DNA of 64,000 nt from Escherichia coli (GCF_036507355.1 NZ_AP027877.1); one strand, 5' to 3'; positions 42,603 through 43,676 are shown, counted from the first letter of the stretch. The notes: generated by a model from the letters alone, not told the origin. Made by a program: numbers and translations.

Positions 42603-43676
42603 ATGATGAAGCGCAATATTCTGGCAGTGATCGTCCCTGCTCTGTTAGTAGCAGGTACTGCAAACGCTGCAGAAATCTATAACAAAGATGGCAACAAAGT
42701 AGATCTTTACGGTAAAGCTGTCGGTCTGCATTATTTTTCTAAAGACAATGGTGTAAACAGTTACGGCGGAAACGGCGACAAAACTTATGCCCGTCTTGGT
42801 TTTAAAGGGGAAACACAAATCAATTCCGATCTGACCGGTTATGGTCAGTGGGAATATAACTTCCAGGGTAACAACTCTGAAGGCGCTGATGCCCAGAAAG
42901 GTAACAAAACTCGTTTGGCATTCGCAGGTCTGAAATTCGCTGATGCGGGTTCTATCGACTACGGTCGTAACTACGGTGTGGTTTACGACGCACTGGGTTA
43001 CACCGATATGCTGCCTGAGTTTGGCGGTGACACGGCATACAGCGATGACTTCTTCGTTGGTCGTGTAGGCGGCGTTGCTACCTATCGTAACTCCAACTTC
43101 TTCGGTCTGGTTGACGGCCTGAACTTTGCCGTTCAGTACCTGGGCAAAAACGAACGTGCTGGTATTCCTGAGCGTTCCAACGGCGACGGCGTCGGTGGCT
43201 CTATCAGCTACGAATTCGAAGGCTTTGGTATCGTAGGTGCTTACGGTGCAGCAGACCGTACCGACGCCCAGGAAGCCGAATTCCGCGGTCAGGGTAAAAA
43301 AGCTGAACAGTGGGCAACTGGTCTGAAGTATGACGCGAACAACATCTACCTGGCAGCGAACTACGGTGAAACCCGTAACGCTACGCCAATTGAAGGCGGC
43401 TTCGCCAACAAAACGCAAGACGTTCTGTTAGTTGCGCAATACCAGTTCGATTTCGGTCTGCGTCCGTCCATCGCTTACACCAAATCTAAAGCGAAAGACG
43501 TAGAAGGTATCGGTGATGTTGATCTGGTGAACTACTTTGAAGTGGGCGCAACCTACTACTTCAACAAAAACATGTCCACCTATGTTGACTACATCATCAA
43601 CCAGATCGATTCTGACAACAAACTGGGCGTAGGTTCTGACGACACCGTTGCTGTGGGTATCGTTTACCAGTTCTAA
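42603..43676 (+). CDS. ompF: Outer membrane porin F (variant loop allele)
   Basis: 357 aa [38 protein letters not shown]... ending ...VAVGIVYQF; matches OmpF except in segments where K-12 has surface loops. Confidence 0.93.

Follow-up and report, generated by a model that had tools for sequence, protein, structure and literature searches.

The window, that is the whole stretch of 64,000 nucleotides of Escherichia coli DNA (GCF_036507355.1, NZ_AP027877.1) which was analysed, is collinear with the 965.4-1028.9 kb region of the K-12 chromosome in reverse orientation, save for the elf/ycb fimbrial operon. An open reading frame of 357 codons and a stop codon, located on the plus strand at 42603..43676, is ompF, with a signal peptide encoded by codons 1-22. 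It is flanked by asnS (which ends at 42001) and aspC (which starts at 43861). This asnS-ompF-aspC order is common to the window, K-12, SY3626, CE10, CFT073 and A29, and at this place the window is oriented opposite to the K-12 strand. Membership of the OmpF family was assessed with the NCBIfam equivalog NF007446 and Pfam PF00267, and the score of the whole protein was also compared with those for PhoE and OmpC. The protein reaches 752 bits with the OmpF equivalog (cutoff 583), whereas the PhoE and OmpC models give 486 and 465 bits respectively, each below its own cutoff. The gene is intact: its frame is open over all 357 codons and both indels relative to K-12 are placed in modelled loops.

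The 24-kb neighbourhood has its best match among complete E. coli genomes at 98.8%. In the elf/ycb region (window 28060-31878) two IS1 copies are present (29270-30038 and 31110-31878, with a mutual identity of only 91%), about 186 bp are deleted near 28060, and the segment corresponding to K-12 997707-998402 is also lost. Due to these IS1 copies and deletions inside it the fimbrial operon is inactivated, and this is Shigella-like genome decay. The IS1 insertions, the decay of the operon and the neighbourhood match not exceeding 98.8% suggest that the window may come from a Shigella-like or otherwise IS-rich lineage. Another gene of the window, ompA (8864-9916), likewise carries a non-K-12 surface-loop allele of 350 aa versus 346, in which N is replaced by D in loop 1, SVE by DNI in loop 2 and YG-KN by PGGVSTKD (+4 aa) in loop 3; outside the changes in loops 1-3 it is identical to K-12. 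The aspC-gloC spacer (window ~45088), like that of CE10 and CFT073, lacks about 170 bp which K-12, SY3626 and A29 possess; a repetitive extragenic element is probably polymorphic for presence or absence here. When the whole window was scanned with Rfam at the gathering threshold no family was obtained at ompF, and the sole family in the whole window was the PyrD leader (24156-24229, minus strand, 97.9 bits).

The 600 bases upstream of ompF contain 9 differences from K-12. The promoter-proximal part of this region (Table 1), which we take to be the equivalent of the K-12 OmpR boxes and promoter with the same position of the transcription start, differs by 42392 A>T, 42403 G>A and an A-run shorter by one base, and each of these differences is common to at least one other natural strain compared. 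The ribosome-binding site and the start codon are intact. The terminator hairpin downstream of the gene is intact as well and differs from K-12 in one loop base, which is the same in SY3626 and CE10. With regulatory DNA, 5'UTR and terminator so near to those of K-12, the window OmpF would be expressed, presumably under OmpR/micF control. The A-run 5' of the ribosome-binding site (window ~42577-42583) counts 7 bases in the window and CE10, 8 in K-12, SY3626 and CFT073, and 9 in A29; this variable run is presumably located in the section of the ompF leader which pairs with the micF antisense RNA. The asnS-ompF spacer (window 42002-42602) is 1.5-5.5% divergent among six strains, compared with approximately 1% in the flanking genes. 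In the window it is closest to the spacer of K-12 (9 differences), with an ompF block of the other class. Since the spacer is K-12-like and the block is not, a recombination breakpoint is placed between the spacer and codon 40.

Table 1. Features of the ompF locus, in window coordinates (residues in mature numbering)
Feature	Position	Strand	Content and basis
Promoter-proximal region, 5'UTR, ribosome-binding site	42390..42602	+	K-12 comparison
Divergent allele block, codons 40-265, L1 to L6	42720..43397	+	84/678 nt (12.4%) differ from K-12
L1 variable segment	42744..42782	+	G26D, E29V, M38K
L2 substitution	42897..42899	+	T77K; K-12 alignment, model
Periplasmic side (end of strand 4, turn, strand 5)	42936..42956	+	Y90F, V93A, F96I; matches HVR2 of Hu et al.
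L3 constriction motif	43014..43031	+	PEFGGD, unchanged; K-12 alignment
L4 variable segment	43158..43172	+	AGIPE for DTAR (+1 aa), including charge reversal R167E; alignment
Periplasmic end of strand 8	43215..43217	+	Y182F; alignment, model
L5 variable segment	43263..43292	+	N198D, L199A, Q203E, P204F, L205R, N207Q; alignment, model
Short L6	43389..43397	+	I-E-G, without TNKFTN; T247E, S248G; alignment, model
Intrinsic terminator	43702..43731	+	hairpin CAGGAC-GTTG-GTCCTG, then T-run; read from sequence

Alignment of the window protein with K-12 OmpF (362 aa; PDB 3HW9/2OMF; NC_000913 b0929) gives 336 identical columns out of 363, with 20 substitutions and two indels which make up a net difference of -5 aa. 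The first-pass annotation, made from the sequence alone, had described the gene as an ompF allele of 357 aa against 362 in K-12 and had proposed this alignment as a check. Its length is borne out by the reading frame and the alignment, the two proteins are indeed not identical, and all three protein segments which it quoted are present. It had also stated that the differences cluster in a few segments, and this is confirmed by numbers: 15 of the 20 substitutions are found in the 82 residues of the external loops and the other 5 in the remaining 252 residues (Fisher p = 1.3e-6), with loop boundaries taken from the AlphaFold2 model of the window OmpF. The signal peptide, the PEFGGD motif of L3 and the last 92 codons are the same as in K-12, just as had been written of the N-terminus, the PEFGGD region and the C-terminal strands. 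The description of the allele as loop substitutions with one deletion was correct for the substitutions but incomplete for the indels, because apart from the loss of the K-12 residues TNKFTN in L6 (-6 aa) there is a second indel, not mentioned there, by which K-12 RD-TARR becomes RAGIPER in L4 (+1 aa). The list of differences was likewise partial; those of L1 and L2 (Table 1) had been left out, and so had Y90F, V93A, F96I and Y182F, which are conservative and face the periplasm. An indel breaking a beta-strand, which had been named as the sign of a pseudogene, is absent, as both indels belong to the L4 and L6 loops.

The AlphaFold2 model, built with 54 homologues, has 16 strands and a pTM of 0.77, and it agrees with crystal structures of K-12 OmpF (2ZFG, 1OPF, others) with TM 0.92 and rmsd 2.5 A. 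The modelled L4 (158-173) and L6 (237-247) each hold their own indel. The 16-strand barrel is reproduced in the model, but the conformation of L3 is of low confidence (pLDDT <50, residues 111-126), and for this reason the pore geometry was judged by the identity of the sequences rather than by the model. The roles of the OmpF constriction and latch residues (K16, R42, R82, R132, D113, E117, PEFGGD, E71) are established. The window protein agrees with K-12 at every one of K16, R42, E71, R82, R100, Y106, D113, E117, G119, G120, D121, R132 and the C-terminal F, so that the earlier view of the gene as an ompF with unchanged pore-forming parts is upheld both by the equivalog score and by the constriction residues. 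Since nothing has changed in the barrel, the L3 constriction, the trimer latch or the assembly signal, the diffusion function of the window OmpF is expected to be retained. One change, R167E in L4, concerns a residue with a described structural role, because in K-12 OmpF a hydrogen bond joins R167 to the backbone of L3 at S125 (PMC11382274); the text of the review PMC3617542 gave no match for R167/R168. The substitution removes the side chain which contacts L3 in K-12 OmpF and possibly alters the electrostatics of the vestibule. The PDB holds no structure of the window allele, the best matches being K-12 OmpF and its variants with 91-92% identity. To our knowledge, nearly all structural and biophysical work on OmpF uses the K-12 allele.

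The first-pass annotation had taken the short L6 for an in-frame deletion, and here the polarity has to be reversed. A short L6 (I-xG-GFANKTQ) is present in E. albertii, in the cryptic Escherichia lineage SCPM-O-B-8794 and in the compared representatives of Citrobacter, Superficieibacter, Dryocola and Enterobacter cloacae, which makes it the ancestral state by E. albertii, the cryptic lineage and most of the neighbouring genera sampled. In a wider protein alignment it is the majority form, with a longer L6 in some Citrobacter and other genera. Since the relatives compared carry the short loop, the 6-aa TNKFTN of K-12 is most simply read as a derived insertion, and the window would keep the ancestral length. 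The enterobacterial consensus also agrees with the window, and not with K-12, at F90, A93, F182 and A199. The L1 (D..V..K), L4 (AGIPE) and L5 (EAEFRGQ) of the window were not found in the relatives with short L6; AGIP in L4 is common to the window and Dryocola alone among the relatives compared, and among the clusters listed L4 RAGIPER and L5 EAEFRGQG are confined to sequences which are labelled E. coli or bear no label. Two related proteins are of separate interest: P0003, an E. coli OmpF of 385 aa in which the L6 region is tandemly duplicated, and P0084, a natural porin chimera of 357 aa in which a PhoE-like N-terminal part of 100 residues is joined to an OmpF body.

At the DNA level the difference from K-12 takes the form of a block. 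The first 117 bases of ompF contain 1 difference from K-12 and the last 276 bases also 1, the gene ends together with the flanks are 0.4-0.9% different, and the flanking genes approximately 0.9-1%. Between the gene ends, in codons 40-265, are placed 57 of the 59 synonymous differences of ompF, scattered also over the conserved strands and L3. The block dS between the window and K-12 (Nei-Gojobori) is 0.50, compared with 0.02-0.04 outside the block. For the same block, K-12 is separated from CFT073 by a dS of 0.08, from the cryptic lineage SCPM-O-B-8794 by 0.32 and from E. albertii by 0.53. The window block has a dS of 0.83 to E. albertii and 0.67 to SCPM-O-B-8794, being in both cases farther away than K-12 is. 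By these values the block dates back about as far as genus-level splits, inside an otherwise ordinary E. coli gene. A recent build-up of loop mutations is ruled out by the contrast of 0.50 in the block with 0.02-0.04 outside it, and the clustered loop substitutions turn out to belong to one contiguous old block and did not arise in the lineage of the window.

The divergence from K-12 is not uniform along the block, since dS amounts to 1.05 in the external loops (a value based on about 42 synonymous sites with uncertain loop alignment) and to 0.36-0.38 in the strands and L3. The roughly threefold higher dS of the loops fits long-maintained loop haplotypes, with recombination eroding the divergence around them. 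L3 has zero non-synonymous changes with a dS of 0.38. Pairwise omega (Nei-Gojobori) is 0.16 in the external loops, 0.05 in the strands and turns and 0 in L3; dN/dS in the loops does not exceed 1 and positive selection is not detected in this way, although a pairwise test at a dS of about 1 has little power. Outside the block, codon 35 (window 42707) carries a synonymous change CTG>CTT which the five compared alleles all lack, and it is the sole difference of the window ompF from the SY3626 gene.

The allele is not rare. The window protein is 100% identical to RefSeq WP_000977905.1 (CE10, SY3626), and exactly the same protein is found in UniRef as C9E711_ECOLX, on at least 1000 contigs. At the DNA level the gene is 1 synonymous base away from SY3626 and 4 bases away from CE10. 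An ompF at least 99% identical to that of the window is carried by 484 of 5426 complete E. coli genomes and only 2 fall between 95 and 99%, the remaining ones having a 1089-bp K-12-like ompF which is 89.8-91.7% identical to that of the window. Due to this gap in the distribution of identities it can be said that E. coli ompF is nearly dimorphic in complete genomes, with ~91% of the K-12-like class and ~9% of the window class. The allele is not specific to one strain: it is widespread, has its place in the sequence catalogues and has been treated in the literature as a group, the CE10 group. In one carrier, EC2257 (NZ_CP158275.1, 3123579-3124656), the ompF span is 1078 bp and not 1074, which points to 4 inserted bp and perhaps a frameshift.

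Carriers differ from one another by 0-0.44% within the block, compared with 0.9-1.6% in the flanks and 2-4.7% in the intergenic region upstream, and the flanks of the window are no nearer to other carriers than to K-12. As a near-identical block occurs in differing backgrounds and the allele class is decoupled from the chromosome, its spread is attributed to homologous recombination. The parts of the block do not always travel together. Matches to the L1, L4-L5 and L6 segments were obtained in 769, 498 and 494 genomes respectively, in one place each. In 759 genomes, more than the 484 with the whole allele, the L1 segment DNA reaches an identity of 99% or higher (767 genomes have it covered); the L4-L5 segment DNA does so in 485, and 494 possess the short L6 junction. 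L4, L5 and L6 are one linked haplotype and L1 is more mobile, because L1 occurs in 759-767 genomes compared with 485-494 for L4-L6. Strain A29 has a window-type L1 within a K-12-like ompF, and further mosaics are present among the database proteins (P0025, P0056, P0009).

As to the origin of the block, two accounts carry most of the weight. A deep divergence beside very little variation between carriers, and sharp block edges at about codon 40 and about codon 265, are what would be left if an Escherichia-like relative, unsampled or unscanned, had donated the block once through homologous recombination and further recombination had then spread it within E. coli, and the agreement of the block with the enterobacterial consensus, unlike K-12, at F90, A93, F182, A199 and in the short L6 points in the same direction. 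Such an import has nearly an even chance of being the true origin. What speaks against it is the donor, since none was found among 80 species-representative loci and 120 protein clusters listed, a set which covers the group of E. fergusonii, E. marmotae, E. ruysiae and E. whittamii incompletely. This failure to find a donor leans towards the other account, which is somewhat further from even but still a serious candidate: the block would be an ancient polymorphism within E. coli, present since about the split from E. albertii and kept by frequency-dependent selection on the loops through phages, bacteriocins, CDI or antibodies, with the gene ends homogenised by recombination. A dS to K-12 within the range seen between species (0.50 versus 0.32-0.53) is consistent with such an age. 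The peak of dS in the external loops, compared with the strands and L3, is expected around long-maintained selected sites, although the small number of synonymous sites and the uncertain loop alignments weaken this point, and a frequency of ~9% in many backgrounds looks stable and intermediate. It is less easily explained by long residence that the window block is farther than K-12 from both E. albertii and the cryptic lineage, that the block is absent from the other Escherichia species sampled, and that the diversity within the class, 0-0.44%, suits recent spread better. That carriers vary so little, and that neither E. albertii nor the cryptic lineage has the block, tips the scales slightly towards import and recent spread.

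Other readings are far less probable. The IS1 insertions and deletions in the elf/ycb operon, ~11 kb from ompF, might raise the suspicion that ompF is decaying or has lost its function in a Shigella-like genome, and in such a lineage an intact gene can be no longer important. Nevertheless, decay is very improbable here: no damage is seen in the frame, signal peptide, beta-signal, constriction residues, promoter region or terminator, the same protein is present in hundreds of free-living E. coli, and the sole window-unique change is synonymous. A pseudogene or a broken strand was likewise rejected, given the open 357-codon frame, the indels confined to loops and the conserved pore residues. Still less credible is the picture implied by the first-pass annotation, that is recent diversification of a K-12-like gene within the lineage by point mutations in the loops and a deletion under positive selection. 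The amino-acid changes are concentrated in loops as it requires, and ompF has been reported as one of the positively selected E. coli genes (cited in Hu et al., bioRxiv 10.1101/2021.09.21.461324). Against it stand the 57 of 59 synonymous differences spread through the conserved strands and L3 of the block, the distance of only 1 base from SY3626 and 4 from CE10, the short L6 which is ancestral by the outgroups, and the loop dN/dS of 0.16. Among the rejected ALTERNATIVES is recent point-mutational diversification, which is contradicted by the 59 synonymous differences and the block dS of 0.50. Gene conversion from a paralogous porin (ompC, phoE, nmpC, ompN) as the source of the loop segments is just as hard to believe, for although the porin paralogues are similar enough for conversion and a PhoE/OmpF chimera (P0084) is present in the protein database, the loop motifs are absent from the other porin clusters retrieved, the DNA of L1, L4-L5 and L6 matches about one locus per genome with every listed match annotated as ompF, and no second copy of high identity was found among the matches in the 769, 498 and 494 genomes.

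Taken together, the gene is very probably a functional OmpF of the minor, CE10-type class and a mosaic, in which codons 40-265 are old and recombining, with the pore kept and the surface altered. The ends of ompF (codons 1-39 and 266-357) and its regulatory DNA are ordinary E. coli sequence, and codons 40-265 derive from a much older lineage with different L1, L2, L4 and L5 and the ancestral short L6. The block moves among E. coli backgrounds by homologous recombination, and its L1 part also does so separately. The outward surface altered in this way would be the part recognised by phages, bacteriocins, contact-dependent toxins and antibodies.

OmpF is a main entry route for beta-lactams and fluoroquinolones, and it serves as receptor or translocator for T2-like and K20 phages, colicins and some CDI toxins. 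Phage, colicin or immune selection, which the first-pass annotation had proposed as the driver of loop variation, is plausible, and the alternative loops may change receptor specificity and be kept by such selection. A bolder proposal is that of a two-state balanced polymorphism of ompF, whose minor haplotype (L4-L5 with the short L6, ~9% of genomes) would be as old as the split of E. coli and E. albertii, held by frequency-dependent pressure of phages, colicins and CDI, with the two classes differing in receptor specificity and perhaps also in vestibule properties (R167E). This is conceivable but doubtful; if true, it would be a receptor dimorphism of trans-species age at one of the best-studied bacterial genes. 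Whatever its history, approximately 1 in 11 E. coli genomes carries a non-K-12 OmpF surface, and a minor class with a linked L4-L5-L6 haplotype, together with a K-12 long L6 that is derived, would be useful for the prediction of host range in phage therapy and for modelling of porin permeation.

Published work offers a setting for these observations. Local mosaic recombination has been described for ompF, fhuA, lamB, ompA and ompC, and according to the same preprint (Hu et al., bioRxiv 10.1101/2021.09.21.461324) OmpF has five hypervariable regions, one of them unusually on the periplasmic side, and E. coli OmpF forms five major groups with large length differences in the L6 region, CE10 being one exemplar. 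The window protein belongs to the CE10-type group, an assignment which rests on its identity to the protein of CE10, the group exemplar named in that text. The binding of phage K20 is reported to map to loops 5, 6 and 7 of OmpF (Traurig and Misra 1999, as cited in later papers). T2-like phages reach OmpF via Gp38 adhesins. CdiA-EC536 uses OmpC/OmpF heterotrimers, a system in which OmpF could come from E. coli 536, Salmonella or Enterobacter, so that variation in the OmpF loops set no limit there (PMC5056734). In the literature searched no phenotype, including a receptor phenotype, specific to the window allele was found.

Among known systems the nearest are the OmpF proteins of CE10, IAI39 and SY3626 (WP_000977905.1), to which the window protein is identical; the window differs from them by its private synonymous codon 35 and by its different, IS1-bearing background. 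K-12 OmpF (b0929; 2OMF, 3HW9) has the same locus, synteny and near-identical regulatory DNA, and the two proteins are alike in the signal peptide, barrel, L3 constriction, L2 latch, L7, L8 and C-terminal third, whereas L1, L2, L4 (+1 aa, R167E), L5, L6 (-6 aa) and four periplasmic-side residues differ. The OmpF of E. albertii NBRC 107761 and that of SCPM-O-B-8794, both of 356 codons with a short L6, have about 94% protein identity to the window; I96 and F90 are common to all three, A93 and F182 are common to the window and SCPM-O-B-8794 only, and L1, L4 and L5 are K-12-like in both relatives, unlike the window. The periplasmic hypervariable region described by Hu et al. is the site of Y90F/V93A/F96I in the window. 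In a broader sense the window ompF resembles other mosaic receptors (E. coli ompC, ompA, lamB and fhuA, Neisseria porB, Yersinia ompF), in which hypervariable loops are reassorted on a conserved barrel. In contrast to E. coli ompC, which is highly polymorphic, E. coli ompF is near-dimorphic.
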